From positions 1,922-65,921 of the forward strand of contig CANKJN010000003.1 of NCBI GenBank assembly GCA_947482345.1: a DNA stretch of 64,000 nucleotides. The letters are read 5' to 3'. Position 1 is the stretch's first letter. Each line of letters starts with the position of its first letter. The notes under the pieces were generated by a model. That model had not been told where the DNA came from. It did not search any database and worked only from the letters and a program-made list of their open reading frames with translations. Source of the stretch: Spartobacteria bacterium (GTDB lineage: Bacteria; Verrucomicrobiota; Verrucomicrobiia; Chthoniobacterales; UBA6821). A program made the translations under genes and the position numbers. This document shows positions 7,255 to 63,355 of the stretch, piece after piece.

Positions 7255-7443
7255 CTGTATTTTGAGAAGTCAAAGCTTTATTCTAATTTTTTCAAGATGA
7301 GATGTATTTTGCTTCATTGTGTGAATTGCAAGAAACCCCACCATCGAAACAAGCCTTGTCAAGAAGGCTAAAGAAATTGTCAACAGGACCAAATGCGCTG
7401 CCACTCTTTGCCTCTGTCAGTCAGTTTTGCTCCCCGTATTCAT

Positions 7444-7800
7444 GGGAGCCTTCCCTTTTCGGAAGGCAAATTCAGCCGCCTTGGCGCATTCCAGCGGATC
7501 GAGAAGGCCGATATTGAGCATTGGGGAAATGATCGAGTGGAACATGTCGGGCTCCCCCTCGATCATCAGGTCCTGCCAGGTGCCGAAGTGTGGGAGCCGC
7601 TCTTCCACGAAGTGCTCCATCCATTTCAGGGATTCCTCCCGTGTCACGGGAAGGGCGAAGTCCGCGGCTTTGTCGGGTGCATCCGGAAAACAGACTTCCA
7701 GGTCGGTCGCGACCTCCCGGGTGATGGGGTCCTGTTCCGGTCTTGGAAGTGCCCGTGGGCGTGGTGAACCGGCCTTCTTCGAATCGCGGAGCGTACCGTC
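7444..7800 (-). pseudogene. Internal fragment of a second photolyase/cryptochrome-like gene (paralogous to 8955-9315)
   Basis: About 357 bp align with the intact gene at 8320-9864 with scattered substitutions (protein ...SPRPRALPRPEQD.ITREVATDLE.CFPDAP...). It has no start region and no C-terminal half. Confidence 0.8.
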
Positions 7801-8319: not shown

Positions 8320-9864
8320 TCACCGAAGCGATTCCAAAAAAGCCTTTGATTGAGTGACGATGGCGGCGCGTTCCTCCGCCGGTCGCTTCATCCACGAACG
8401 CACCATCATGGCCGTGCGCGGGTTATTAGCGAAGCGCCCGCGATGGGTTTCGTAGAAGTTCCAGTAGAGGAGGTTGAAGGGGCAGGCTCCCGGCCCTGTT
8501 TTGATATCCGGACTGTGGGGACATCCCCCGCAGTAGTTGCTCATCTTGTGGATGTATGATCCGCCGGCTGCATACGGCTTGGTTGCCATGAATCCGCCGT
8601 CGGCATGGAGGGCCATTCCGAGGAGGTTGGCGGCCATCACCCAGTCATGGGCGTCGATATACATCTCGTTGAACCAACGGAGCGCCTCACCGGGCCTGAC
8701 TCCCGCGAGCAGCAGGAAATTGCCGAGGATCATCAGTCTCTGGATGTGGTGATTGAAGCCACCCTTCAGGACTTCCCCCAAGGTCTGACGGAGGCAGTTC
8801 ATGTCCGTCTCGCCGTCATAGAAGAAGGAGGGGAGGGGGCGTTCGGCTTCGAGACCATTGACCCCCACGTACTCGGGCATCTTCAGCCAGTAGACCCCGT
8901 TGACGAATTCGCGCCATCCGATGATCTGCCGGATGAATCCCTCCACGGCATGCAGGGGAGCCTTCCCTTTTCGGAAGGCAGATTCAGCCGCCTTGGCGCA
9001 TTCCAGCGGATCGAGAAGGCCGATGTTGAGCATCGGGGAAATGATCGAGTGGAACATGTCGGGCTCTCCCTCGACCATCAGGTCCTGCCAGGTGCCGAAG
9101 TGTGGGAGCCGCTCTTCCACGAAGTGCTCCATCCATTTCAGGGAGTCCTCCCGTGTGACGGGAAGGGCGAAGTCCGCAGCTTTGCCGGGTGCATCCGGAA
9201 AACAGATTTCCAGGTCGGTCGCGACCTCCCGGGTGATGGCGTCCTGTTCCGGTCTGGGAAGTGCCCGTGGGCGGGGTGATCCCGCCTTCTTCCAATCACG
9301 GAGCGTGGCCCTGTTCTCGACATCGTAGTTCCAGTCGCCACCGACCGGCTTCCCGTCGCTCTCCATGAGTAATCCCGTCCGCCTCCGCATCTCGCGGTAG
9401 AAATTCTCCATCAGCAGACGCTTCTTTCCCTGCGCCAGTTCGGCGAAATCCTCCCGGGAGCAGAGGAATTGGGTGTCTGGAACGATGCGGAGCGGGTATT
9501 CCAATTTCCCGCCAAGGGAGTCCAAGGCGAGGCTCTCATCGTGGTTGTTAGGCCGGGTGACGAGAATCTCCGAGGGCTTCCAGGCCGTGCAGTGACGGGC
9601 CAGGGCGGAGCGCATGTCGGGAGCGTCGTTGATCCGGTGGTAGTCGACCTCCCATCCCTCGGCCTCCCGTTCCGCGGCGTAGTGTCTCATCGCCGAGAGA
9701 AGGAGCATCAGGCGATGCCGATGGTAGGGGAGCTTTCCGAAGGTCTGCCGGGATTCGATGAAGAGCAGGCAATCCGTCCCCTTCCTTGCCGAGAGGAGGG
9801 ATGCGTTGGTGACCGAGAGTTGGTCGGCGAGGATCCAGACTGTCCGCCGAGTCTCCGCACTCAC
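8320..9864 (-). CDS. FeS-BCP/CryPro-type photolyase-cryptochrome family protein ((6-4) photolyase-like)
   Basis: COG3046-like N-terminus. The C-terminal cysteine pattern C...CGGC-x12-C (YCGGCPHSPDIKTGPGAC) matches the spacing of the four [4Fe-4S] ligands known for PhrB/CryB. GTG start overlaps the HAD stop. Confidence 0.8.
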   Translation of the reverse strand: MSAETRRTVWILADQLSVTNASLLSARKGTDCLLFIESRQTFGKLPYHRHRLMLLLSAMRHYAAEREAEGWEVDYHRINDAPDMRSALARHCTAWKPSEILVTRPNNHDESLALDSLGGKLEYPLRIVPDTQFLCSREDFAELAQGKKRLLMENFYREMRRRTGLLMESDGKPVGGDWNYDVENRATLRDWKKAGSPRPRALPRPEQDAITREVATDLEICFPDAPGKAADFALPVTREDSLKWMEHFVEERLPHFGTWQDLMVEGEPDMFHSIISPMLNIGLLDPLECAKAAESAFRKGKAPLHAVEGFIRQIIGWREFVNGVYWLKMPEYVGVNGLEAERPLPSFFYDGETDMNCLRQTLGEVLKGGFNHHIQRLMILGNFLLLAGVRPGEALRWFNEMYIDAHDWVMAANLLGMALHADGGFMATKPYAAGGSYIHKMSNYCGGCPHSPDIKTGPGACPFNLLYWNFYETHRGRFANNPRTAMMVRSWMKRPAEERAAIVTQSKAFLESLR

Positions 9865-10469: not shown

Positions 10470-10527
10470 AGGCTTTTAGGCTGAAGACTGAAGGCTGTTA
10501 GGTTTGGTTGCGCTTCCCTGAGGAATC

Positions 10528-11006: not shown

Positions 11007-11453
11007 AAGAGCAATCTAGAAGGGGATGTTTCCTCCGTCAATAGCGGCAGGATGTCAGGCGGGGGCGCTACACCTCAACAATCTAGGAGGCCGCGTTAAA
11101 AGAGTTAAAAAGTGAAAATGTTACAACCAAGGCTCTGGGAAGAGCCGCGTAAGATCCCGCGAATGCGGGACCCGAAGCGCCACCGCTTGCCTGGAGGCAA
11201 GTGGCGTCAACATGGATCCGTGAGATCCCTGACCTGAGATTCGGGAGGGGAGTGTCAGGGAAAACGTCGTCAAAAGATGCCTGCATCAGTTCAATTCGGC
11301 CTCGGCCTTCAGCCCCTTGTAACCTTTTAACGGTGTAACGCTTTTAACCCTTCCGGGACTCACCATCCGGGTGAACTGTTCAAACCTGTCAACACCGCTC
11401 TATTGCGCAATCTGGGTTAAACAGCGGTTCCCTAACTGTTTTCAGCCTTCAGT

Positions 11454-16605: not shown

Positions 16606-16846
16606 CGGACACTCAGCGTGGATGAAAAAGCTAAAAGCTAAAATGAGAAAAGCTGAAAGAAGGCATTGAGGGAAAAGTGCCATTATGAAATTTACACAAA
16701 CGAGCTGAGCCTTTGCTGCTCTGACCTAACAGCCTTCAGTCTACAGCCTATCCACCTGCCTGCTGGAGCGGGCTTGTGAATAACTTGGGGACAACGGGGA
16801 AAAACTCCCTCCCGATCACTGCTGGCACAAGTCGCCTCAACGCTTT

Positions 16847-20782: not shown

Positions 20783-22429
<1,647 letters not shown>

Positions 22430-22466
22430 GTCCGACTCCCACGCTTCTCTAAGAAGTTACAGCAGC

Positions 22467-22500: not shown

Positions 22501-22581
22501 ATGAGGTATAGCGGGGGCTTGGAGAGCGGTTTAGACTGTAGGCTGTTAGGCTGTAGGATTTGCCAGTAAGTCTACAAAAGG

Positions 22582-24024: not shown

Positions 24025-24046
24025 GGAACCGCGGTTCCCTAACCCA

Positions 24047-24202
24047 ACCAAGGTCACCCGCAGCGCCCTGCAGAACGCCGCTTCCATCAGCGGACTCCTG
24101 CTCACCACCGAGGTCACCATCGCGGACGCTCCTGAGAAGGAGAAGGCCCCTGCGATGCCACCAGGTGGCGGAATGGGTGGAATGGGCGGAATGGACTACT
24201 AA
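24047..24202 (+). pseudogene. Duplicated groEL 3'-end fragment
   Basis: Encodes [51 protein letters not shown], nearly identical to the groEL C-terminus. The copy continues through a second terminator. Confidence 0.85.
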
Positions 24203-24233
24203 GTCCAAGCCTAGCCTAAAAAGCTCAACAGAG

Positions 24234-24267: not shown

Positions 24268-24445
24268 CTAGGCTTGGAGGCTTGGGATTTTGGCGCAGGG
24301 CGTTGTTGCTGCTCGGTCAGCGTAGGTTCACTACGCTTTCCCTCGCGACGCCTAGCCCTGCATCCAAACTTCCAAGCCTCGACTGCAGTGGGGAAGGTCA
24401 GCAGTCTTTGGTGGCTTCGAGTTCGGTTAAAATCACGAAATCTTA

Positions 24446-24784
24446 TTAAACCCCTTGTTGTTTAAGGTTCCAATCAGTGAATCCAGAGATAACAGTCATA
24501 TCCTCAAAAAACTGATTTTCTGTGATTCCATCCAAAATTATCATTCTTCTTAATTCATGGAAAATTTTGTGGAATCTTGTGCTTTCATTAAGGCTGTTCC
24601 ATCCAGGAATATTTACACCATATTTATTTAAATAACCTTTGGATAGTTTAGGTATGTCGTTGATGAAATTCTCACATGCGAATATCTGAATAATTCCTCC
24701 ACCTTTCATTCCGCAAGAGTTTATGTGAGTTGCTTCAGACCAGCAAATCAGCGCAATTTTAGAATCAATAGAGTTTTTTAGCAT
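24446..24784 (-). CDS. Small hypothetical protein (112 aa) in the most AT-rich DNA of the window
   Basis: The ORF lies 76 bp downstream of the helicase gene and is co-directional with it. I recognise no motif. The coding call rests on length, context and shared atypical composition. Confidence 0.5.
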   Translation of the reverse strand: MLKNSIDSKIALICWSEATHINSCGMKGGGIIQIFACENFINDIPKLSKGYLNKYGVNIPGWNSLNESTRFHKIFHELRRMIILDGITENQFFEDMTVISGFTDWNLKQQGV

Positions 24785-24860
24785 TAAATCCGGAGTTTTA
24801 TTTCAATTGCGTTAGGTTTTGATATTTAAGTAAGGCCTAACTTATATTCGCGCAACGTTT

Positions 24861-27800
24861 TTATTTATCCCAAACGAATCCAATTTCAGTAAGGCGAGCC
24901 ACTTTATCAGCATCAAGAATTCCTTTGCGCTTTTTCTGACGCTGTTTCGTAGCCCAGTTTGCCAGGCCAATATTAGCCTTAAAGTGCCTTGGGACATTGC
25001 AATGTCCATATTCTGCTCTGAAATCAAGTATATCCCTGAATCGATCTTCCCAAGTATTTTGCGTCCCTTCTTTGCCCCAAGATACACCAAGAAAGGTCAG
25101 TTTTTCCTCATGAATCAGGGAAAGAGTCCCCTTGCGTTTTTTACTTCTTTGATCAGTAAGCCATGCACCAAGTGACGGGTTGTCCTTGAATCGAGCCGGA
25201 ACATCACAATGCCTGTGAAGTTTTTTAAAATCTCGAAGTTCTTCAAAACGCTTATTCCAGATTTCATTGCCGATTTCTGAATCTATTCGAGGAGAAACCC
25301 ATTCAAAGCAGATATCCGAAAGAAGCCTTTCGTAGTCTTGGTTGAGTAATCCTCTTGATTTCTTTGATCGTTGCGTTCCAACCCACCGTGCAAGAATAGG
25401 ATTTTCTGGATACTGGCTCGGCACATTGCAATGACCATAGAGCTTTTTAAAATCCAAGAGTTCCTGATAGCGATCCCACCATCGCTTATCGTGAGCGTCC
25501 CAAACGAATCCCGCGTCATTGAGCTTACTAACTTTTTCAGGATCTAAAGTGCCTTCTTTGAAGGATTTTCTTTGGTACATTATCCATATACCAAGTGATT
25601 GATTCTCAGGGTCTGTAGGAGAAGCATTTGTGTGCCCGGTTTTCTCTTTGAATCTCAAAAGTTCAAGGTATCGCTCTTCCCATCTGCACTGCTGCTCGCT
25701 CCAACGGAATCCTGCGTGATCGAGTAGGTTTTGTCTCTCAGCGTAAAGAAGCCCTCTTGTTTTTGCGCTCCTTTGGTTTTCAACCCATGAGCCAAGCATT
25801 GGGTATTCCGCACAGCCTTTTGGAACGTTCGTGTGACCATACTTAGCTTTGAATTGGAGGAGTTCTGCATAGTGCGTCTCCCACTTGGAGACTAAACCAT
25901 CTATGCACTGAGCCGCTACGGCTGACTCAATGTCATTTAGGTGTACATGAGGGCCTATAACCTCAACCAATTCGCCGAAGGGTCGATCAACAACTCCTTC
26001 CTCAAGAACAGAGTTAATCGCTGAGAGCCTGATGGTATCTGCCAGCACTTCATCCTGCTCCTGCATTGTTTGTAGAACATCCCAGATTTCATCGAAGTCC
26101 GCTCGGGCTACCGCCTCATCTAGGCTTTCGCCTGACTCAACCTCGACATAGAGAGGAACGAGAACATACCCGAGTTTCTTGCCGGGTGATTTTCGCATTG
26201 CTCGGCCTGTAGCCTGAACGATGTCTACCAGACTGCGTCTCGGTGAAAGAAACGCCACCATGTCGACCGCTGGGACATCGACTCCCTCGGTGAGGCATCG
26301 GGCATTGGACATTATACCACTGTCTGAGGCCCTGAAATCGCGCATGATCCGTTCTCGATGGGCGGTCGGCATCGCTCCGCTGACATGGAAAGTGCAAAAT
26401 TCTGGAAGATGAGTTCTCACTCCCTCGCTGGTATCCGCAACGAAGGAAGAGGCGGATGCCACCGTATTGTGAAAGGTAAAGATGCGGCGGACACCGTATT
26501 TATAAGCGGCATCACGGAGTGCAATCTGGTTAGCCACCTGCCTAGCCTGAATAGCATCGCCATCGATCAGAACCTGCCCTCTGCTGATCAGTTCATTTGT
26601 CACCATTTCGGAGGTGATGACCGAGATGACAACTTTGTAGCCGCAGATGATTTCGCGTTTGGCTGCTTGGCTGAAACTCAGTGTGTAGCAGCGCGTTCCG
26701 AATACCTCGGGGTTATCCATCGAATAGACCAGTTCCGCGTCACCTGATCTGTCCTTCTTTCTTGGATTGTGGTGCCGTGGAGTGGCCGTGACGAAGAGTC
26801 GCTTGGCGATGAGGATATTTGCGTCCTTCAGGGCGTAGGAGAGTTTGGATCCATCGCGGCCTGCGGTCTTGTGAGCCTCGTCGAAGATGCCGAGATCGAA
26901 GGATTCGTCCGGATGCATGGCCGCACCAACCACTGTTGCGGATTGGTAGGTACTGAAGACGATCTTGGTTCCCTTGAACGGGGCATCAAGGAAGCTGCGG
27001 ACGGTTTCGGGATTCGTGGAAACCTCGAAATCGAGGTCCGACTGGGCCGTGCTGATCGCATCGGCATCTCCTTTGACGGTGGGATCGGAGCAAACGCAGA
27101 GGTAGGCGAGTGATTTGAGACTCGTTTCCTTTAGCCACTCGTGGAGCGTCTGCCGAAGCAGGGCGAGCGAGGGAAGCAGGACGAGGATCTTTTGTGCGCC
27201 AAGCTGTTCCGCTGTCCAGAGGGTGACGAGGGTCTTACCCGTGCCACAGGCCATGATAGCGGTTGCACGACTTTCCTTTTGGAGTGTCGGAACGATGGCG
27301 GCCAGTGCCTCCTCCTGATGGGGAAGGGGAGTTTTCCTCGGGGTGCGGACTGTGGCCTCGGCAAGCCATGCCTCAATCGCAGCGAAGTCCGATGCCCCCA
27401 TCCGGTCTAGATCCGATCCCCTAATGCAGAAAAAGCCCTGTCGGTCGTTGATGACGGAGGGAAGTTCGTCGCAGTTGGTGATCAGGATGCGGCTTCGGAT
27501 GTGGGGGCTGTCGGCCAATCCCATGAAGGTCGATAGCTCACGCCAGGTCATCGGGTCCCGGCCCGTTCGGAATTTTACCTGATAAGCGCTCAGATCCCCA
27601 AGGAGCGTTTGAAGGACTCCATCGATGCCGTAATCCATCCCACCCAGCCCCAGCTTGCTCAGGATATCAAGCGGGGTGGCGTTCAGCGGCCAGACTTCTT
27701 TGGCATCATGCTTCCGCTGGGTGGCGAGATACGCCTCGGCAAAAACCTCGAAGGCATCGCCCTTTCCCTTGTTCTCCGGAATCGCCGTGATCCGTTTCTC

Positions 27801-27875
27801 CAGATCCGCAAACGACTTCACCCCGGCAAACAGCCCGGACTTGGCAATCTCTCGTGATTTCGTGTGCAGTGGCAT
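24861..27875 (-). CDS. Mrr-like PD-(D/E)xK nuclease domain + SF2 (DEAH) helicase + five C-terminal helicase-associated (HA) repeats
   Basis: The N-terminus has GDAFE...DYGIDGV...YQVKF. Helicase motifs are ACGTGKT (I), FDEAHKTAG (II), TATP (III), LTEGVDVP (V) and QATGRAMR (VI). Five ~65-aa repeats follow, of the form W..(R/H)(Y/F).EL..FK...GH.NVP......LG.W...QR. The ATG at 27875 is preferred over the TTG at 27902. Confidence 0.85.
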   Translation of the reverse strand: MPLHTKSREIAKSGLFAGVKSFADLEKRITAIPENKGKGDAFEVFAEAYLATQRKHDAKEVWPLNATPLDILSKLGLGGMDYGIDGVLQTLLGDLSAYQVKFRTGRDPMTWRELSTFMGLADSPHIRSRILITNCDELPSVINDRQGFFCIRGSDLDRMGASDFAAIEAWLAEATVRTPRKTPLPHQEEALAAIVPTLQKESRATAIMACGTGKTLVTLWTAEQLGAQKILVLLPSLALLRQTLHEWLKETSLKSLAYLCVCSDPTVKGDADAISTAQSDLDFEVSTNPETVRSFLDAPFKGTKIVFSTYQSATVVGAAMHPDESFDLGIFDEAHKTAGRDGSKLSYALKDANILIAKRLFVTATPRHHNPRKKDRSGDAELVYSMDNPEVFGTRCYTLSFSQAAKREIICGYKVVISVITSEMVTNELISRGQVLIDGDAIQARQVANQIALRDAAYKYGVRRIFTFHNTVASASSFVADTSEGVRTHLPEFCTFHVSGAMPTAHRERIMRDFRASDSGIMSNARCLTEGVDVPAVDMVAFLSPRRSLVDIVQATGRAMRKSPGKKLGYVLVPLYVEVESGESLDEAVARADFDEIWDVLQTMQEQDEVLADTIRLSAINSVLEEGVVDRPFGELVEVIGPHVHLNDIESAVAAQCIDGLVSKWETHYAELLQFKAKYGHTNVPKGCAEYPMLGSWVENQRSAKTRGLLYAERQNLLDHAGFRWSEQQCRWEERYLELLRFKEKTGHTNASPTDPENQSLGIWIMYQRKSFKEGTLDPEKVSKLNDAGFVWDAHDKRWWDRYQELLDFKKLYGHCNVPSQYPENPILARWVGTQRSKKSRGLLNQDYERLLSDICFEWVSPRIDSEIGNEIWNKRFEELRDFKKLHRHCDVPARFKDNPSLGAWLTDQRSKKRKGTLSLIHEEKLTFLGVSWGKEGTQNTWEDRFRDILDFRAEYGHCNVPRHFKANIGLANWATKQRQKKRKGILDADKVARLTEIGFVWDK

Positions 27876-28029
27876 AGGGGATGTCGGAGTGTAGGACAAC
27901 AAGCATCCCCCTCCAAGCCTTCAAAGCTCCTAAAGGGGGATGAGTATCCATGGACTGTAGGGACATTTCACCATTGGCGCTTTTTTTCCGCACAATGAAG
28001 GCTAGATTGATACAAGTCACTACGGAGCC

Positions 28030-29313
28030 ATGAGGACCCTTCCCGATCACCCCCTGCGCTATGCCATGGTCAATGAGCTGCATGCGCGTCCTTTCCCGGT
28101 ACTTACGACGCCCTGTCAGGTGGTTTATTTTGCCATTAAGGAACCCAAAGACGCCCGTAAACGCGATCGAGATAGGGATCGGGCCCATTTAACTACCCTG
28201 CTCGATCAATTTGGGGTGAATCATCCCGAAGCACGTGCGACGCATTTTGAAGCAAGTCTGGGCAAAACAGAATTGAAATGGGAATCGCATACGGAGTTTG
28301 TAACCTATTCCGCCTTTACCCCCGGCTTGGATGCACGGCCTTTTGATCCAGCAGGAGCGTCCGTATTACCCCCCGACTGGTTGGCCAAAGCACCTGGTCA
28401 GACCCTGGTTGCTATGATGATCCGCGTCGAGGAACTGCCCGAGGATGAGGAAAAGATCCTGCCGATGTTGCTCGATTGTTTCGTTCCCGAAAGTCTCGCA
28501 GTCTCCTATGTCCTCGATGGGGCGGCGGTCGTTGCCGGGGATTTTCGCATCGATGCAGCGGGGTTCATGCGGATTTCGGTTTTCGTGCGTAAAAAGACCG
28601 GCACACGAAGGGTCGGGCGGATTGTGCAACGTCTCTGCGAGTTGGAAACCTATCGTGCAGCCTCGATGTTGGGCCTGCCAAGGGCATGGGAATTATCGGG
28701 GGAGCTGAATGCGCTGGACCCGCGCCTTTCGGCGCTTGTCTCAGGGTTGGATGAGCGCGGAGAATCCGCCGAAAAGGTACTCCACGAGTTACTCTCCATA
28801 GCGGGGCAACTGGAACGCCTTGCTGTACAGGCCAGCTTTCGTTTGCCGGCCACCGTAGCCTATGAGGCAATTGTGAATCAACGCATCGCTGTCCTACGTG
28901 AGACGCGGTTTCAAGGCCGCCAAACATTTGCCGAATTCATGACGCGCCGCTATGACCCTGCAATGCGCACCGTCCGCGCCACCGAAGCGCGCCTTACCTC
29001 CATGGCGGATCGTGCAGAACGAGCGGCGGAACTGCTTCGCACCAGGGTCGATGTGGAGCGTTCGGCACAAAACCAACAGATTTTGCAGAGCATGGACACC
29101 CGCGCAGATACGTCCTTGCGCCTGCAACATACGGTCGAGGGTCTCTCGGTGATCGCCATCAGCTATTATGTTTTGGAGTTGATGGCCTATCTGACGGCAC
29201 CCTTGGCTGATGCGTGGCATCTACCTAAGGTTTGGCTGATGGCGGGATCTGTCCCGGTGGTCTTGGTATTGGTCTGGGCCGGAATACGGCGGTTGAAGTC
29301 TCCTTCTAGATAG
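28030..29313 (+). CDS. DUF3422-family membrane-anchored protein (CorA-like topology, function unknown)
   Basis: 427 aa. The N-terminal HPLRYAMVNELHARPF is typical of DUF3422. A long helical region is followed by two C-terminal TM helices. Confidence 0.65.
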   Translation: MRTLPDHPLRYAMVNELHARPFPVLTTPCQVVYFAIKEPKDARKRDRDRDRAHLTTLLDQFGVNHPEARATHFEASLGKTELKWESHTEFVTYSAFTPGLDARPFDPAGASVLPPDWLAKAPGQTLVAMMIRVEELPEDEEKILPMLLDCFVPESLAVSYVLDGAAVVAGDFRIDAAGFMRISVFVRKKTGTRRVGRIVQRLCELETYRAASMLGLPRAWELSGELNALDPRLSALVSGLDERGESAEKVLHELLSIAGQLERLAVQASFRLPATVAYEAIVNQRIAVLRETRFQGRQTFAEFMTRRYDPAMRTVRATEARLTSMADRAERAAELLRTRVDVERSAQNQQILQSMDTRADTSLRLQHTVEGLSVIAISYYVLELMAYLTAPLADAWHLPKVWLMAGSVPVVLVLVWAGIRRLKSPSR

Positions 29314-29318
29314 AGGCC

Positions 29319-29506
29319 ATGTGTGCCCGGGAGGCAGGGTTGTAGACCACGCGAAGCGTAGCCTGAAGGGTAACCAAACACCCAGGAGGGTGTGCGGAAG
29401 AGAGCGATGCAATCGCTCCCCGAAGGGTGCCACAGCTCCCCGGAAGGGAAGTGGCATCAAGCGGCATCAGACGGAGTGTGCGACAACAAGCATCCCCTTC
29501 TAAGCT
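29319..29506 (-). repeat. Structured repeat family, copy A (canonical orientation on the minus strand)
   Basis: Aligns as a reverse complement with 62800-63030 and 39441-39530. Contains the hairpin GAGCGAT-GCA-ATCGCTC (29402-29418), a CCC-TTCG-GGG hairpin and others. Confidence 0.75.
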
Positions 29507-29612
29507 GGATCATTCAGCGCTTCCCTTTAATCTCATGAGGGTAAATTCCCCGCCCCTTGGGGCGACCCAAGAAATAAAGAAACCAAATACCCCGCTGCTT
29601 GCGGTGGGGTTC

Positions 29613-29632
29613 TTTAATCAGCGCTTCCCTAG
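29613..29632. repeat. Solo IS/MITE terminus fragment
   Basis: TTTAATCAGCGCTTCCCTAG matches the MITE end TTAAATCAGCACTTCCCTAG at 35626-35645. A weaker second copy (ATTCAGCGCTTCCCT) lies at 29510-29525. Confidence 0.55.
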
Positions 29633-29660
29633 ATCCTATCGCCTCGCCTTATAGCCTTAT

Positions 29661-29675
29661 TTAGAATAATTCTTG
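29661..29675. promoter_or_regulatory. Fur-family 7-1-7-like box TTAGAAT-A-ATTCTTG
   Basis: The core AGAAT-A-ATTCT is a perfect palindrome about 40 nt upstream of the fur-family gene that heads the suf cluster. Confidence 0.45.
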
Positions 29676-29713
29676 ATTGAGGATTGCATGCTGGTAGGTT
29701 TTCAGCCCGCCGC

Positions 29714-30181
29714 ATGAAGAAGGATTCATCCATTCCAGCCTATGAGAACGCGATGGGAAGAGAGGGCCTGAGGCTCACTCCCCAGAGGCGTCAGGTCTAC
29801 GAGGTGCTGATGGACAAGCGGGACCATCCCACGGCCACGGAAGTCTTTATCCGTGCCCAGAAGCGGATGCCTTCGATCTCGCTCGCCACGGTCTACAATT
29901 GCCTCGAGACGATGGTCGGCAACGGCTTGGTCAAAGCCGTCCATGTCGACCGGGAACCGACCCGCTTCTGCGCAAATCTCCGCGAGCACGGCCACTTTCA
30001 CTGCTCCGACTGCGGCAAGGTGACCGACATCGAGTTTTCACAAGCCCGCGACAAGGGATGGAAGCTTCCCGACGGTTTCCTCGTCACCCAGCACGACGTG
30101 ACCCTCCGCGGCCTCTGCGCCGATTGCGGCACGGCTACAAAGTCCTCCACTCATTCCAGAAACAAACCAACCACCAAGTAA
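29714..30181 (+). CDS. Fur-family metalloregulator (Fur/PerR/Zur-like)
   Basis: Winged-helix [14 protein letters not shown]...HPTATEV, and metal sites [12 protein letters not shown]...CADCG (two CxxC pairs). ATG at 29714. Confidence 0.85.
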
Positions 30182-33709: not shown

Positions 33710-33910
33710 AATCAGCCGTAACAAATCAGCGACTGGCGAACACATAGCCGTGGGAACGGCTTGGGTAGACTGAACGAAAGTTCAGCCCGCAAGGGTGAGC
33801 CGAGCAGGAGCGAGCGAATCAAAGCTGATAGGACTGCAAAGCAGCCCCGATAGGGGCGAGTGGCTTGGGAAAGCCCGAGTTCAAATGCGTAGCAACGGCC
33901 GGGTCAGTCA

Positions 33911-34235
33911 AATCAGGAAAGGAGAAAGAAATCCCTGAGGGCCGGCTGATTTCTAGCGCAGAAGTAGGGGAAAACTCACAGGGATGAAGGGGATAAAGGG
34001 GATGGGAGAAATCCCCTGTCCCCGATCGTATCCAGCATATTACAGTGACACTGGGGGCACGGATCAGCCCAACTGTTCCAAAATCCTTTTCATCCCCTTC
34101 ATCCCTGTGAAATGTCAGGGATTCTCTGACTCCTTTTTTCCGGATCAAACCTGCAGCGTCGCTGGTACTTGAAGCATCCAAACGGAGGTTTGGCAGGGAA
34201 GTCCTTTCCTAAGCCGATCGCCTTGAACTGTTGCC
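33911..34235. repeat. Direct repeat copy 1 (decayed MidA-like gene 3' end plus its downstream region)
   Basis: Aligns with 35800-36168. The 34150-34235 part is a frameshifted copy of the methyltransferase C-terminus, with a 14-nt deletion. Confidence 0.8.
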
Positions 34236-35697: not shown

Positions 35698-35799
35698 TGC
35701 CTTGAAAGGATTGGCCTTTTGGCCCCACTAGCAACGGCCTTTATGCGATTACCCCAAAAATTGCATTAGAGGCGGGAAGTACAAAGAATTTTATCAGGA

Positions 35800-36168
35800 A
35801 ATCAGGAAAGGATAAAAGAACCCCTGAGGGCCGGCTGTTTTCTAACGCAGAAGTAGCGAAAAACTCACAGGGATCCGTAATGGATGCGAAGCAACGGCCG
35901 GGCCAGCCAAGGGGATAAAGGGGATGGGAGAAATCCCCTGTCCCCGATCGTATCCAGCATATTGCAGTGCCACTGGGGGCACGGATCAGCTCAGCTGTTC
36001 CAAAATCCTTTTCATCCCCTTCATCCCTGTGAAATTGCAGGGATTCTCTGACTTCTTTTTCCGAATCAAACCTGCAGCGCCTCGACTCCCGGGCGCTGGT
36101 ACTTGAAGCATCCCAGCGGAGGCTCGGCGGCGAAGTCCTTTCCGAAGGCGATCGCCTTGAACTGTCGC
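35800..36168. repeat. Direct repeat copy 2 (intact MidA-like 3' end plus downstream region)
   Basis: Aligns with 33911-34235. It is continuous with the intact gene at 36066-37253. Confidence 0.8.
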
Positions 36169-37253
36169 CCCATGGTGCCGGGGTTCAGAAGTGTCTGCAG
36201 GGAGCGCAGGTCGCCGCGCGCCGCATCGCTCGCGGCGGTGAGATCACCGAGTGAGCGGAGCCACGGTTCGGCGGTTCCGACGAGGAAGTGATGCTGGTCG
36301 CTGTAACCGAGGAGCCCGAAGCCGATGGAGCGGGCTTCCGCCGCCAGAGTCGTGAAATCGATCTGAGCGGTGATATCGCGCAGGCCGGGTTCGGGGAGGG
36401 GATCGTTGTAACGTTGATGATCCTGGTAGGCCATCACGGTGCCATCGGCCCGATGCGGGGCGTAGCGATCCTCTCCCACCTGGCCGTAATCGATAGTCAG
36501 GACGATGCCGCGTTGCAGCTTCGCATGCAGTGTCGCGAGCCATGGGGAAAGTCCCGGATTCCATTCGACCCGGAAACCGGGAGCGAGGTTGGTCGGCAGT
36601 TTCGCGGCGACAGCCCTCAGGGCGGGATCTGGAATAGGACGGGTGACTAGCCGGAGACCCTGTTCTTGTAGAACCACGCATTCCTCCTCCCAGACGCTGC
36701 CGCTCCACCGGAGCGAGTCGACGGGGAAGGCGTCCAAGAGCTCGTTGGAGAGATGGATGCCGGTGAATTCGGGCACCTCCTCGAGGGTAGTCACCCAGCT
36801 GACGTCGGGGAACGATTGCAGCCGTTCCCGTTGCTTTCGCTGATTCACGGCAAAGGGTTCCACTATGAGGAAATGCGCGGAACGGCTGAAATCATCGGAG
36901 CTCTTGGCAATCTCCCCGAGAATATCGGAAGCCATGCTTCCGTCGTTGGCCCCCTGCTCCACGATCGTGAATGGGGAGGGGCGGCCAAGTCGCTCCCAGA
37001 CTTCCCTGCAGACAGAGGCAAGGAGTCGTCCGTAGATCCCTCCGACGCTGACGCTGGTGAAGAAATCCCCCTCCTTCCCCACCCGCGCGCGGCCCGAGGC
37101 GTAGTAACCGTGCTCCGGGTGATAGAGGGCCGTCTCCATGAAGCGGCGGAAGGGGATGGCGCCGCTCTGCTGAATCTCCTTTATGATGATGGAAATCAGA
37201 GGCGGTGCTGAAACCTGTGATGTGAAACCTGAAACTTGAAATTCCGGGTTCAT
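36066..37253 (-). CDS. MidA/NDUFAF7-family SAM-dependent methyltransferase (DUF185)
   Basis: The FRRFMETALYHPEHGYY N-terminal motif and overall family layout. The start is uncertain because the first ~15 codons are low-complexity word sequence. Confidence 0.75.
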   Translation of the reverse strand: MNPEFQVSGFTSQVSAPPLISIIIKEIQQSGAIPFRRFMETALYHPEHGYYASGRARVGKEGDFFTSVSVGGIYGRLLASVCREVWERLGRPSPFTIVEQGANDGSMASDILGEIAKSSDDFSRSAHFLIVEPFAVNQRKQRERLQSFPDVSWVTTLEEVPEFTGIHLSNELLDAFPVDSLRWSGSVWEEECVVLQEQGLRLVTRPIPDPALRAVAAKLPTNLAPGFRVEWNPGLSPWLATLHAKLQRGIVLTIDYGQVGEDRYAPHRADGTVMAYQDHQRYNDPLPEPGLRDITAQIDFTTLAAEARSIGFGLLGYSDQHHFLVGTAEPWLRSLGDLTAASDAARGDLRSLQTLLNPGTMGRQFKAIAFGKDFAAEPPLGCFKYQRPGVEALQV

Positions 37254-39360: not shown

Positions 39361-39440
39361 GATGATGTCATTTTATTGGAGTCGCTCCTTAAGTCAACGG
39401 GAGGCGGTGCCCGTGCCGTTTACTTCTTCATAATTCATAA

Positions 39441-39530
39441 TTGATGGCATCCGCCTCCCGGCGGACGGTGCCACCCTTCGGGCAACGACATCGTCGTTGT
39501 CTTCCGCGCGCCTTGCCAGGGACTTGGTTC
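39441..39530 (+). repeat. Structured repeat family, copy C (short)
   Basis: Shares ...GCCGCCTCCC..GGTGCCACCCTTCGGGCAACGAC-ATC-GTCGTTG..CTTCCGC...TTGGTTC with copies A and B. It lies directly upstream of mutL. Confidence 0.65.
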
Positions 39531-39549
39531 ATCATTCATCCTTTCCCCC

Positions 39550-52622: not shown

Positions 52623-53456
52623 TCAGGATTGGATCGAGTCAATCGTCGGGAGGCGGTGTCTGCGTTCTCCAAGCCGGGGGATGCAGGCGATGAGGGCCTT
52701 GGTGTAGGGATGCTGGGGATTGCGGAGGATCTGGTCGGTCTCCCCATACTCGACGACCTCGCCCCGGTACATCACGGCCACATGGCGGGCGAGACCGCGG
52801 ATGATGGCGAAATTGTGGGTGATCAGGAGCACCGCCATGCCGAGGTCGCGCTGGAGTTCCCGAAGCTTGTCGAGGATCTGCTTCTGGATCGTGACATCGA
52901 GCGCCGTGGTCGGTTCATCGGCGATCAGAAGGTCAGGACGCGCCGAAAGAGCCATGGCGATCATCACGCGCTGCTGCATGCCGCCGCTGAGTTGGTGGGG
53001 GTAGTCGTGGAGTCTCGAAGCCGGATCGACGATCCCGACGGCATCAAGCCAGCGGATGATCTCGGAATCGATGTCGGTCACGTCGGGCCGGTGGAGACGA
53101 ATCATCTCCGCGATCTGGCTGCGAATCGTGTAGACGGGGTTGAGCGAGGTGGAGGGCTCCTGGAAGATGTAGGCGATCTTCCCCCCGCGAACCTCGCGAA
53201 GCTCCGCATCCGAGGCCTTCAGAAGGTCCTTCCCTTCAAAGAGGATCTCACCGCCCTGATAGACGGCGGGAGGTGTGGGTAGAAGTTGCGAGATCGCGAG
53301 CGCGGTCACGCTCTTGCCGCTGCCGCTCTCACCGACGATCGCAAGGGTTTCGCCTTTGCCAAGCTCAAGGGAAACTCCCTTGAGGGCCGGGGTGATGGTC
53401 TCGCCCGAGCGGAAAGCGATTTTGAGGTTGCGGATGGAGAGCATGGGAAAAGGCAA
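52623..53456 (-). CDS. Peptide/nickel ABC transporter ATP-binding protein (DppD/OppD-like)
   Basis: Walker A GESGSGKS, signature [12 protein letters not shown], Walker [13 protein letters not shown] and the OppD-type C-terminal extension. Confidence 0.85.
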
Positions 53457-53471
53457 ATTATGAAGGATGAA

Positions 53472-53852
53472 TTATGAAGTATGAAGGGCAGAGGCCTTGG
53501 TCTTCTTGGAAATGGTCGTGAGGATTGCGATGAGCTGATCGCACTCATGATAGAGATCCTTCAATTTCCGAGAGCTGACGATATCAGATTCAACGAGCAA
53601 CTCGAGCCAGTAGGCGGTTTCATCAAGCTCCTTGATGCAAACTCCGATGATGGAGATGAACTCTGCTTTGGACCTGGAGCGCTTGGCTTCGCGGAAATTG
53701 GCTCCAACTGATGTTCCTGATCTCAGAGCCTGCTTTCCCAATACTTGGGCCTGCGTGTTCTTGGGAAGGGAACAGTAAAGCCTGATCATCCGAAGGGCGA
53801 ACTCCTTCGTCCTTGCGGAAAGCTCAACAGGGGGTGTTTTTTCATTTTTCAT
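53472..53852 (-). CDS. Four-helix-bundle protein (23S rRNA intervening-sequence protein family, TIGR02436-like)
   Basis: Motifs FALRMIRLY...LGKQALRSGTSVGANFREA...EF...KELDETAYWLELL. Start chosen at MKNEK (53852). Confidence 0.8.
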   Translation of the reverse strand: MKNEKTPPVELSARTKEFALRMIRLYCSLPKNTQAQVLGKQALRSGTSVGANFREAKRSRSKAEFISIIGVCIKELDETAYWLELLVESDIVSSRKLKDLYHECDQLIAILTTISKKTKASALHTS

Positions 53853-53898
53853 TCTGCATTTTTCCTTTCCTTCATCCCTCATAACTCATCCTTCATCA

Positions 53899-55741: not shown

Positions 55742-55895
55742 TGAAGGAAAGGATGAATTATGAAGGATGAATGATGAAAGGAAGAGGAGTCACCCGGCAT
55801 AGAGCGCCGGCGTATAGCGACGGCGTTTTGCCAAATGGAAAAACGAAACAAGATTGATCCCTTCGGGCATTTCATAATTCATCCCTCATCCTTCA

Positions 55896-57788
55896 TCATT
55901 GTTTTGGCGCATACTCCGGCCGGTAGAACCACACCAGGTCGTAGCTCCAGCCGGCCTTGGTCATGGTGACGGGTGCGTCGATCCATTCGCCGGGTGAGGG
56001 GCCCGGGCGTCGGATCCGGTAGCTTCCCTTCCACATGACCGAGGTCTCCTCGGGGACAAAGAGGAACAGGTAGGGTTGGTCGGCATAGATCGCCTGCTGG
56101 AGTTTGCCGGCAAGCCTGATGATCTCGGGACGGGCGTATTCCTGCCGCAGGTCGGTCAGGAGGTGGTCGACTTCGGGATTGTTGTAGCCGATGAAGTTCA
56201 GTTCCTCGGGATGGGTCTGGCTGGAGTGCCAGATCCCGTATTGGTCGAAGTCGTATCCAAGCCCCCAGCCCATGACGATGGCGTCGAATTCCCCCTTGTT
56301 GACGAAGCGCTTGAGCAGGACGGCCCACTCGTAGATCTCGACCTTCACCTCGATGCCGACCTGCTTGAGGTCATCCTGGACAAGGGTGGCGATGTCGCGA
56401 CGGACCTCGTTGCCGTTGTTGGCCAGCAGGGTGAAGCTGAAACGCTTCCCCTCCTTCACCCGGATACCGTCAGGGCCAACCTTCCACCCGGCTTCATCCA
56501 GAAGCTTGCGGGCGGCGGCCGGATCGTAGGGGAGTGGTTTCACCGAGGGGTCGAAGAACCATACCTGCGGAGTGAAGATCCCGGTCGACTGCACTCCCCG
56601 GCCATAGATGATGTGCTTGATCATCTGGGCGACATTCACGGCCTGAGCCAAGGCTTGCCTGACCCTGAGGTCTTGGAACATGGGACGGCGGAGATTCCAG
56701 CCGATGTAGTTGTACCTGTTGCCGGGGACGCTGAAGAGGTCGAGGCGGGGATCCTTCTCCAAGCTCTTCACGGCCCAGGGGCTGACATCCCAGAAATCGA
56801 CCTGCTTGGTCTGGAAGGCGAGTTGGAGGGTGAGGGGATCGGGCAGGACGCGGAAGACGATCGAATCGAGCCATGGGGAGCCGAGGAAATAGTCGGGGTT
56901 CTTTTTTAGCCGTATGAACTCATTGGTCTTCCAGGAATCGAACTTGAAGGGGCCTGTGCCGATCGGCTTCCGGTTATAGGCCTCGGGCCACTTGGAGGGG
57001 TCGAGTTTTCCCAGGAGGTGCTCGGGCAGGATCGCCCCCATCCAGCTCAGGAGCGCCGGGGAGAAGGGCTTCTTGTAGCGGACAATGACCGTTTTCGGAT
57101 CCGGCGTCCCGACGCTCTCCACGAGATCGAAGTCGGAGCGGCGAGGGGAGGCCACTTTCTCGTCCATGATGGCCCGGCACGTGAAGGCGACATCCGCCGA
57201 GGTGAAGGGGGCGCCGTCATGCCAACGCACCCCGTCGCGCAGGGTGAATCGGATGATCGGTTCGGCCTTGAATGGGCGCTCCTTACCGCCGGGCTCCAAG
57301 GCGGGGAAGGGGAGTGGGTGGAGGTCATTTTTCTCAAAGAACCCCGCGATTTTTTCTGAAACTTCGAGCCCCGGCTGGCGTAGCGTGATGACGAGATTTT
57401 TCCCCTTTTGTTCAGTATTCGAAATCTCACCCTTAAAATTAAAAGCGGTATTGAGTTGCGATGCCGGTATCGTTGCCGTTTTGGCTTCTTCTTCAGTCGC
57501 AAACTGAAACGTTGTTTCCTGCGATAGCTCCCACCCGGTGGCCAGATCACCCACGATCTCGAGATCCTGATTGTATTTGATCAGGCCGTTAAAGATCAGC
57601 CCCCCGATCTGGGAAGAGGCCGAGTCGGCCTGCTGGATCGGGTTCAGAGTGGAGGGTTCCCCGAGGGTACCGATCGACATCTCGTTCTTCTTGGCCACCG
57701 AGAGGTAGGTGGCATTGACGAAAGCCGCCGCCAGAAGGAGAAGCAACGCAACCGGAATGCCGTAGAGAAAGAGCCGGAGGGAACGCAT
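55896..57788 (-). CDS. ABC transporter substrate-binding protein, family 5 (peptide/nickel)
   Basis: 630 aa with a signal anchor and SBP_bac_5-like core. It heads the permease/ATPase operon. Confidence 0.85.
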   Translation of the reverse strand: MRSLRLFLYGIPVALLLLLAAAFVNATYLSVAKKNEMSIGTLGEPSTLNPIQQADSASSQIGGLIFNGLIKYNQDLEIVGDLATGWELSQETTFQFATEEEAKTATIPASQLNTAFNFKGEISNTEQKGKNLVITLRQPGLEVSEKIAGFFEKNDLHPLPFPALEPGGKERPFKAEPIIRFTLRDGVRWHDGAPFTSADVAFTCRAIMDEKVASPRRSDFDLVESVGTPDPKTVIVRYKKPFSPALLSWMGAILPEHLLGKLDPSKWPEAYNRKPIGTGPFKFDSWKTNEFIRLKKNPDYFLGSPWLDSIVFRVLPDPLTLQLAFQTKQVDFWDVSPWAVKSLEKDPRLDLFSVPGNRYNYIGWNLRRPMFQDLRVRQALAQAVNVAQMIKHIIYGRGVQSTGIFTPQVWFFDPSVKPLPYDPAAARKLLDEAGWKVGPDGIRVKEGKRFSFTLLANNGNEVRRDIATLVQDDLKQVGIEVKVEIYEWAVLLKRFVNKGEFDAIVMGWGLGYDFDQYGIWHSSQTHPEELNFIGYNNPEVDHLLTDLRQEYARPEIIRLAGKLQQAIYADQPYLFLFVPEETSVMWKGSYRIRRPGPSPGEWIDAPVTMTKAGWSYDLVWFYRPEYAPKQ

Positions 57789-57922
57789 ATCAGGGAAAAG
57801 ATGAAGGAGGAATTATGAATGATGAAACGGTGAATCACAGGCTATTCCATGGAAACTTCCACCAAAAATCGCCTTTGGAGGTTGTCCCTGAAGGATCTCC
57901 CTGCTTTCCTTGTCGGTTCATC

Positions 57923-61914: not shown

Positions 61915-62129
61915 AGGGGTGCAAAGTCAAAAGGCAGAATGAAAAATGAAAAAGGATCAGGGCAACCGAATGGGATCAAAGGGGGAGTGAAGAGCCAACG
62001 AAGTCAGGGGGGGCGGTTTGCTTTTTAAGCGTATGCTTTTGCACTTTGCAAAAATTCCTTCGTTGGCACTGCGTGGCGGAAATTCCTTCAGGAGTTGATC
62101 TGACAAGGAGTTGAAGTCAGGCTGATCCT

Positions 62130-62799: not shown

Positions 62800-63030
62800 G
62801 TTGAACGGCACTTTGCTTTGCCTCAGCATCTCCCGATGCATTGATGCCGCCTCCCTCCCGGGAAGCTGCGGCACCCTTCGGGCAGCGACAGAGTCGCAGT
62901 CTACCGCACACCCTCCCAGGTGTTTGGTTCGTCCCCTTCGGGACTGTCCCTGCAGTAGAGGGAAAGGCTACGCGGTGCCACCAGGCACTCGGCGGTCGCA
63001 ATGCCGTGCCGCCCTCACGTGCTACACCTC
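62800..63030 (+). repeat. Structured repeat family, copy B (longest)
   Basis: Core 62836-62968 aligns with the reverse complement of 29347-29470. Hairpins are GCCGC...GCGGC, CCC-TTCG-GG, GCGAC-AGA-GTCGC (62885-62897) and ACACC...GGTGT. Confidence 0.75.
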
Positions 63031-63355
63031 ATGAAGGCTCAACAGCCATTTCCCAAGAGCATGGGTTGTCGATCCACGCCTGTATCCATCGATACGCCCT
63101 CGGATCTCCGCAAATCCCATCAGTCAGAATCTTGCACCAATTGACTCGCTCATTCCCATGAGACTCGCCTCTCGCTTCACTCGGGCGGCCTTCGGCACTC
63201 TAACCTGCTCACCCCTTCGCAGGGTTCATCTCTTTCGTCTTCGGAATTCGGATTGAATCTCATCAACTACACAGGATCCATGCGAATTTTGTGACAATTC
63301 CCGCGGCCTGTGATTTGTCCTGTCGCTGTCGTTTATCCCGGAATATGCTGAATAC

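Follow-up and report, generated by a model that had tools for sequence, protein, structure and literature searches.

A probable family of modular structured repeats in freshwater Chthoniobacterales

Known structured repeats and the family described here

REP/BIME sequences are high-copy extragenic structured repeats that lie near gene ends and are mobilised by RAYT transposases (PMC3733652, PMC2817692). The REPs themselves are single palindromes of 20-40 nt marked by GTAG or CGTC and mostly arranged as inverted doublets (PMC3733652, PMC2817692), and GTAG REPs, again single tagged palindromes, have been reported in Opitutus terrae (PMC3733652). The repeat family described here resembles REP/BIME in its clustered mosaics, in having neither terminal inverted repeats (TIRs) nor target-site duplications (TSDs) and in the RNA hairpins that it presumably contributes to untranslated regions (UTRs), but its 93-nt unit comprises three covarying hairpins plus a mini-hairpin and no tag, and we saw neither inverted doublets nor a RAYT. 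Reading its TTGACG start as the CGTC tag of a REP (CGTCAA on the other strand) was rejected because the tag would then be misplaced in both end and strand, and because many copies carry TTGATG.

BOX elements of Streptococcus pneumoniae follow the plan boxA-boxB(n)-boxC, with defined A and C end modules. Like them, the present repeat is a non-coding, modular hairpin mosaic with variable modules and many intergenic copies in either orientation relative to genes; unlike them, it has three UCCC-loop hairpins and nests in the loop of its own first hairpin (P1), and it occurs in another phylum and has no sequence relation to BOX. ERIC/IRU and Correia (NEMIS) elements are intergenic sequences of about 100-150 nt that are co-transcribed with their neighbours and fold as RNA. 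Each is one long, imperfect palindrome whose ends are inverted, and Correia elements make a TA duplication. Our repeat is an intergenic element of that size class without the inverted ends. It shares with IS200/IS605 miniatures of the PATE type the lack of TIR and TSD, the end hairpins and the excision-like empty sites, but has no conserved target in its 5' flank and no likeness to the ends of the insertion sequence (IS) found at locus L075 of our comparison set.

RsaE/RoxS and LhrC1-5 are terminated, promoter-driven genes for small RNAs (sRNAs) with C-rich loops, situated at fixed loci of Firmicutes. The repeat has several hairpins with such UCCC or C-rich loops and forms tandem sibling copies, but it lacks terminators, is insertion-polymorphic and can be nested. 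Judged from its sequence, it also appears to lack the promoter of its own (29250-29750) and the intrinsic terminator of an independent sRNA gene. It differs from a riboswitch in having no conserved place upstream of one gene class, from a MITE in having neither terminal inverted repeats nor a target-site duplication of fixed length, and from an integron attC site in that its ends are unpaired in all folds, direct reading gives no fit to RYYYAAC/GTTRRRY and no integrase was seen. Collectively, the repeat behaves like REP/BIME, BOX and ERIC elements but fails the defining features of each.

Copies, fold and covariation of the repeat unit

Throughout, the window refers to the whole 64-kb stretch of DNA analysed. 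The original prediction described three copies of a hairpin-rich repeat in it, and direct reading confirmed all three at their places, together with the hairpins GAGCGAT-GCA-ATCGCTC, GCGAC-AGA-GTCGC and CAACGAC-ATC-GTCGTTG and the closing pair GCCAC/GTGGC versus GCCGC/GCGGC. The core common to these copies, here A, B and C, is 93 nt long; CCCTTCGGG is invariant in all three, and ungapped core identity is 72% for B versus C and 83% for A versus B. A covariance model built from the three cores (R1) was run without filters on the window, and a second model (R2) was rebuilt from 50 copies. Copies A, B and C score about 96-110 bits, and the scan uncovered two further copies that had been missed, at 11121-11210 (86 bits) and 33735-33822 (29 bits). 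A 21-base degenerate pattern covering four copies matches the window 4 times, compared with an expected 0.00.

The repeat unit measures about 87-93 nt and reads, in order, 5'-TTGAYG, P1 (loop UCCC), CCC-NNN-GGG, P2, UCUNCCGC, P3 (loop UUCCCA) and CUUGG(UUCA)-3', so that its ends are TTGAYG and CTTGGTTCA. Conserved among its unpaired parts are TTGAYG, the P1 loop UCCC, CCC-NNN-GGG, UCUNCCGC, the P3 loop UUCCCA and CUUGGUUCA. While the stems covary, a UCCC-like loop recurs in every one of P1, P3 and the accessory hairpins. RNAalifold predicted three consecutive hairpins from the three cores, with 9 of 30 pairs compensatory, and folding each of the three singly gave the same hairpins, with z-scores of -3.7 for copy A, whose minimum free energy (MFE) is -42.5 kcal/mol, and of -2.4 and -1.4 for the other two. 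The GGG of the unit may pair either with the upstream CCC or with a downstream UCU; the former pairing is backed by CCCC/GGGG extensions and one CCU/AGG case only. Because the GGG can pair upstream instead, three apparently invariant G-U pairs may not be pairs. A stem closing the 5' end on the 3' end, tRNA-like or attC-like, was rejected as neither predicted nor conserved.

The core of copy A (29368-29460, minus strand; R2 101 bits, E 1e-22) begins 54 nt past the stop codon of the convergent DUF3422 gene. Its P1 has 11 bp, a 3-nt bulge and the loop UUCC, and is followed by CCC-UUC-GGG, P2 GAGCGAU/AUCGCUC and P3 ACACCC/GGGUGU. On its 3' side, direct reading finds the accessory hairpins ACGC-UUC-GCGU and UGCC-UCCC-GGGCA (29319-29367, minus strand); modules loosely similar to them, which are weak evidence, follow A-type copies in L038, L007 and L014. 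The 5' flank of copy A (29461-29506, minus strand) is a direct repeat of 27870-27919 according to blastn and the alignment with L039, and 27870-27919 comprises the upstream region and first codons of a helicase-like gene. The supposed partial fourth copy at 27884-27919 (minus strand) matches only this flank (29470-29506) and not the core.

Copy C (39441-39533, plus strand; R2 95.9 bits) occupies the 5' leader of mutL and ends 16 nt ahead of the ATG at 39550; the unit that is gained or lost here is 39441-39527, within an array of TTCATNN heptamers. The core of copy B (62841-62933, plus strand; R2 95.5 bits) is the inner element of a nested composite of 230 nt. In this composite, all on the plus strand, the 5' half of an outer element, TTGAACGGCACTTTGC (62801-62816), is followed by the hairpin module GCAUC-UCCC-GAUGC (62817-62840), both delimited by an alignment of seven B-type composites, then by the inner core, two or three accessory hairpins (62934-62994; composite alignment) and the outer 3' half (62995-63068), whose GCAA..GTGCC pairs with 62807-62816. 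One of the extra hairpins is GUGAC-UCCC-GUCAC in the relatives. The extents originally given for A and B, 29319-29506 and 62800-63030, do contain the cores, but the remainder consists of other modules, and in the case of B of a nested composite.

The inner unit of B-type composites sits in the P1 loop of the outer unit. The P2 and P3 of the outer element of copy B are degenerate, and the outer P1 halves covary, with CCGCC/GGCGG in L005 and L016, TTTGC/GCAA in the window and CTTC/GAAG in L017; the outer P1 is also closed when the L016 composite is folded to its MFE. A copy at L059 (5642-5750) has a 16-nt insertion in the P1 loop, where the nested insertion of the B type also sits.

Of the two copies found by the models, copy E (11121-11210, minus strand; R1 66.9 bits, R2 85.8 bits) lies between an MGDG_synth gene and a 72-aa open reading frame (ORF), in the same orientation as both. 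Its stems, with P2 UCCCGC/GCGGGA and P3 GGCUCU/AGAGCC, hold many new compensatory changes, and near-identical E copies with the same flanks occur in L008, L011, L015, L026, L029 and L035. The other is a divergent F-type copy (33735-33822, minus strand; R1 21.9 bits; R2 29.4 bits, E 2e-5) that starts 25 nt past the stop codon of the convergent sufD and has kept P2 and P3 while its P1 is degenerate. A possible degenerate relative, which is uncertain, was picked up at 63141-63236 (plus strand) by a motif match and by R1 with only 11.8 bits (E 0.47); it starts with TTGACTCGCTC and has the hairpin CUCAU-UCCC-AUGAG, and it was not recovered by R2 at E<=1.

Outside the window, the pattern matches 34 stretches in a collection of species-representative genomes, one genome giving 12. 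Almost all bear the label Chthoniobacterales, Spartobacteria, Verrucomicrobiia or Verrucomicrobiota, and they come from freshwater metagenome-assembled genomes (MAGs). R1 finds 67 copies in the window and the matched stretches (308 kb), and R2 finds 17 in 80 metagenome loci syntenic at sufD (796 kb), all 17 where identity to the SufD of the window is 75% or more; the F-type start motif also occurs in one locus with a SufD of 61% identity. The total comes to about 80 copies in the Verrucomicrobiota/Chthoniobacterales DNA examined, often clustered, tandem or nested. One stretch from a 'Nitrosomonas' MAG (L024, JAUXRH010000064.1) matches the pattern but not the model and was set aside as chance, while a contig labelled 'Proteobacteria bacterium' (L012, RFPR01000130.1) has a full copy of 86.7 bits and is probably a verrucomicrobial contig that was binned wrongly. 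Viral contigs gave no pattern matches. The sequence of the window itself is also found in a lake-metagenome contig in ENA and in the NCBI MAG GCA_947479235.1.

Comparison with Rfam 15, in which a match would have spoken against the original prediction, returned no family: there was no match at the gathering threshold anywhere in the window, none to the core at E<=10 in the region 29200-29700 and none to 19 copies in L037, L009 and L017 at E<=1. ARAGORN found no tRNA or tmRNA in the window. A search of full-text literature on repeats and small RNAs in Verrucomicrobia, Chthoniobacterales and Spartobacteria yielded nothing of this kind. The repeat family thus looks new, being absent from Rfam 15 and undescribed in the literature searched.

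Covariation was assessed first on a 67-sequence alignment fitted to the covariance model. In it, 95% of cells hold standard pairs, and moving the 3' partners by 1-3 columns lowers this share to 36-50%. Changes on both sides are found in 27 of the 30 pairs, compared with 10-17 after such a shift, and none of 500 column shuffles reached the observed values. As that alignment had been fitted to the model, we realigned a diverse set of 28 copies with MAFFT and had RNAalifold predict the structure unconstrained, which returned the same three hairpins with 20 of 27 pairs compensatory. By eye, P2 and P3 each exist in roughly ten or more fully paired sequence versions. The covariation, from which selection on a folded single strand was originally argued on three copies, holds on about 80. 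Among the variable pairs there are 31 G-U and 22 A-C combinations, so that G-U is not in excess and neither strand is favoured; an assignment of the strand from G-U pairs was dropped, these counts being uninformative.

A different pattern appears within subfamilies, defined by at least 88% identity, when each distinct variant is counted once. Here, a pair is broken by 13 single changes and turned into a wobble by 2 others, while of the double changes 7 preserve pairing and 3 abolish it. Paired positions within subfamilies change about half as often as unpaired ones.

Gain, loss and genomic context

Comparison of orthologous sites revealed filled and empty states of the same place. The mutL leader of the window reads ...cttcataattcataa, then the unit TTGATGG...(87 nt)...CTTGG, then ttcatcattcatcc...ATG, and that of L046 reads ...cttcataattcataattcatcattcatcc...ATG, an exact empty site. 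The leader is also empty in L040 and L041 and is filled in L079, L080 and L111, although their SufD is less similar; L074 has an F-type copy at the same spot. The copy in the mutL leader is 94% identical between the window and L080, compared with 85% for the adjacent mutL coding sequence. Downstream of sufD, L103 carries an 85-nt insert (TTGACGCTC...CCGGTAT) where L046 and L047 are empty. The F-type copy of the window is absent at the exact point from L050, which has a canonical copy slightly further on, on the same strand, and opposite-strand copies occur in the sufD 3' region of L060, L061, L076, L091 and L103. In all three filled/empty pairs the 5' boundary lies at TTGA, and the junctions share 'TT', 'ATTTG' or nothing, giving no consistent target duplication. 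Terminal inverted repeats were not found either, the 5' TTGAYG(G/C)CAC and the 3' CTTGGTTCA not being reverse complements.

The two direct repeats mentioned above bound an indel. In L039, whose SufD is 99% identical to that of the window, 27884-27919 and 29470-29506 are merged as a single sequence, and the segment of about 1.5 kb between the repeats, with the DUF3422 gene and copy A, is missing. Overall, units are gained and lost as discrete blocks in intergenic DNA, stack in tandem, nest in P1 loops and lie at the edges of strain-variable segments. As a separate observation, the window from about 24400 to 29460 is a strain-variable island containing a helicase gene and the DUF3422 gene, neither of which aligns with L039. 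The island helicase has 1013 aa with Mrr_cat_2/ResIII/HA domains, and GC content falls to 45% at 24-26 kb.

Copies cluster in direct, not inverted, order. L037 has eight in 8 kb on one strand, two of them 1 nt apart, and L009 and L017 have five or six each. Genes inside such arrays encode a PIN domain protein, an NTP_transf_2 protein, a DUF4143 ATPase and GT4 glycosyltransferases. In L037 (1-8000), every called gene is also on the strand opposite to the eight copies, which stand between sets of two or three accessory genes (PIN; DUF4143 ATPase; NTP_transf_2 and a partner; GT4), a layout that is cassette-like without attC features.

The genes next to copies are diverse and stand in either orientation, including mutL, DUF3422, sufD, an ECF sigma factor, MGDG synthase, PIN, a GT4 glycosyltransferase and others. 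All-against-all blastp of the ORFs of 34 loci identified no recurrent protein gene adjoining the copies, the matches being limited to neighbours that are orthologous and to two paralogous glycosyltransferases. By codon-bias frame scores, the downstream gene is co-oriented for about 14 copies and convergent for about 11; these counts are approximate, as the rough gene caller was noisy for small genes and its calls were rechecked with the frame scores. Orientation is accordingly unbiased, and the claim that position relative to genes is not conserved stands. Many copies lie in multi-kb non-coding stretches, the distance to the nearest start or stop is mostly below 100 nt, and several copies end 20-60 nt ahead of a start codon.

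A T-run within 20 nt downstream was present in 3 of 65 copies, and in none of the 65 on the opposite strand, on which grounds an intrinsic terminator on either strand was rejected. No sigma-70-like promoter site was found in 29250-29750 around copy A, and TTGACG as a -35 box was likewise discarded, for the sequence offers no suitably spaced -10, and a consensus site near A is lacking. On the strand that runs from TTGA to TTGG the flanks are pyrimidine-rich, with a C fraction of 0.31-0.33 compared with 0.19-0.22 for G.

Tandem arrays with a 7-nt period fill the stretch before many start codons that lack a Shine-Dalgarno (SD) sequence, in the window and in many other loci. The heptamers include TTCATAA, TTCATCA, TTTCAGC, CTCCCAG, CTCCTAG, CTTCGAC and CTAACAG/CCTTCAG, and resemble the STRR heptamers of cyanobacteria. 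Arrays in the window lie at 10477-10503, 16626-16659, 16724-16750, 22531-22557, 39427-39442, 53456-53486, 53838-53897, 55749-55778, 55879-55897, 57800-57826 and 61938-61953, and mutL orthologues have differing heptamers at the same place. In 11 of 65 copies a heptamer array follows in phase directly after ...CTTGG; an array upstream was seen in 0 of 65.

The window contains further repeats of other kinds. These are a 300-nt pair with 96% identity (7438-7737 and 8950-9249), a 165-nt pair with 94% (22269-22433 and 24042-24206), a block of about 325 nt that recurs after 1.9 kb (33910-34235 and 35799-36169) and a 34-45-nt unit, GGGAACCGCTGATTAAATCCCATGAAGGCCGCTG, at 3252, 7970, 8251, 35358 and 35598 on both strands. 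A miniature of the IS200/IS605 type, about 95 nt long, lies at about 29524-29618, 60 nt from copy A, and is unrelated to the repeat in sequence; it has a left hairpin CGCCCC-TT-GGGGCG, a right hairpin CCCCGC-TGCTT-GCGGTGGGG and TTTAATC on both sides. A full version of this IS, with TnpA between very similar ends, is inserted directly after sufD in L075 (11285-11830).

Nature of the element and rival explanations

Our best explanation, which we consider probable, is that the family comprises small, non-autonomous, modular structured repeats of freshwater Chthoniobacterales that behave like REP/BIME or BOX elements. The folded single strand would be under selection mainly in proliferating lineages, as ssDNA during movement or as RNA: stems that are fully compensated between subfamilies, together with frequent uncompensated changes in single copies, point to proliferation as the stage at which most of the selection takes place. 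Given the roughly halved rate of stem changes within subfamilies, copies may also be under some constraint where they stand, and the identity of the mutL copy (94%, against 85% for the coding sequence) could mean purifying selection in place and not a recent insertion. Since no mobilising enzyme, TIR or TSD was found, mobility is read from presence and absence only, a pattern that precise deletion could mimic. The units might spread through a trans-acting single-strand transposase, although none is tied to the element, or through ectopic recombination from one heptamer array to another, such arrays flanking many copies; this would explain in-phase insertions without duplication.

As regards the host, the element appears to have no promoter or terminator signal of its own and gene ends lie nearby in both orientations, so it is probably transcribed within the 5' or 3' UTRs of its neighbours. 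Its effect at the host level would then probably be that of hairpins in the UTRs of neighbouring mRNAs, and such GC-rich hairpins may act as exonuclease blocks or processing sites by analogy with those of REP/BIME, ERIC and BOX. Counting against our best explanation, the UCCC loops on otherwise unrelated stems look like a recognition motif with a host function. A bolder reading, which we regard as a long shot, is that the UCCC modules, with in-phase heptamer arrays running up to SD-less starts, might form a post-transcriptional system common to the clade, as portable 5' or 3' UTR cassettes for a dedicated RNA-binding factor. Alternatively, the family might represent mobile elements of a new class, directed at hairpin loops and heptamer arrays without a known transposase.

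The original prediction held a mobile element or an sRNA family to be likelier than a cis-acting leader, and the filled and empty orthologous sites bear out the mobile half of that claim. The sRNA half has become weaker. A family of trans-acting sibling sRNAs, with C-rich UCCC/CCUCC loops that would bind G-rich mRNA sites much as the loops of RsaE/RoxS or LhrC do, could account for loops that stay UCCC-like while the stems covary, for loci conserved with their flanks in several genomes (E-type copies, for instance), for tandem clusters resembling sibling sRNA arrays, for the pyrimidine-rich flanks on the TTGA-to-TTGG strand and for the mutL copy being more similar (94%) than the adjacent coding sequence (85%). 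We nonetheless think it unlikely, given that a terminator-like T-run follows only 3 of 65 copies, that no promoter-like site lies near copy A, that copies 1 nt apart or nested leave no space for separate promoters, and that no excess of G-U pairs marks one strand. Presence and absence are moreover clean between close relatives, even in the 5' leader of a gene, and the start codons read have no SD-like G-rich site upstream to serve as the target of anti-SD loops. The idea that the repeat is a cis-regulatory leader of the downstream gene, a riboswitch or attenuator, draws on the end of copy C 16 nt before the mutL start and on the several copies that end 20-60 nt before a start codon. It is contradicted by the variety of gene contexts, the downstream genes being unrelated to each other and about half of the copies being convergent with the nearest gene, and also by the mutL orthologues of closer relatives that have no copy and by the lack of an Rfam match, and it appears the least probable of all the readings considered.

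An IS200/IS605 miniature or REP-like element, moved as ssDNA by a trans-acting HUH tyrosine transposase that would recognise its terminal hairpins, would fit the clean empty sites, the either-way orientation, the hairpins near both ends and the lack of TIR and target duplication; its stems are almost purely Watson-Crick, fitting a role of both DNA strands or of ssDNA, and the clade has an IS200-like TnpA gene (L075, 11369-11783) as well as the miniature IS beside copy A. This origin is nevertheless doubtful. The ends of the sole IS200-like element found, that in L075, are unrelated to the repeat, TTGA is part of what is inserted and no target is shared by the empty sites, there is no GTAG/CGTC tag or REP-type inverted doublet (PMC3733652), and no recurrent protein gene stands beside the copies. 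Searches of 1.2 Mb with phmmer gave only one Y1 transposase match with IS608, IS200 and RAYT queries, which were approximate sequences, and the RAYT query itself matched nothing in these 1.2 Mb of loci.

GGA hairpins of CsrB and RsmZ sequester CsrA, and by analogy the complementary strand of the repeat, with its GGGA/GGGAGG loops, might be a protein-binding platform. Every hairpin loop has GGGA on that strand, and about half of the copies are placed so that their GGGA strand would belong to the 3' UTR of the neighbouring gene; but orientation is not biased towards the GGGA strand, the copies are dispersed and not gathered in one or a few sponge genes, and GGGA loops of 4 nt are more constricted than the sites CsrA typically binds, which makes such a platform very unlikely.

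Small structured repeats have been well studied in Proteobacteria, Firmicutes and cyanobacteria, and none of the present type was found for Verrucomicrobiota in the literature searched. The family is abundant, with five copies in the 64-kb window and up to eight in 8 kb elsewhere, and it stands out through its unusually clean covariation, its value as a strain-level indel marker and its nesting in its own hairpin loop. In metagenomic RNA discovery, such a family gives rise to false calls of 'novel ncRNA'. The interest of the family would be higher if the UCCC loops or the link with the heptamer arrays prove functional, and through the association with these arrays in SD-less leaders it may offer an entry to leader organisation. 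For uncultured freshwater Chthoniobacterales, the repeat may serve as a marker of genome plasticity and is a candidate for a new mechanism of mobilisation.
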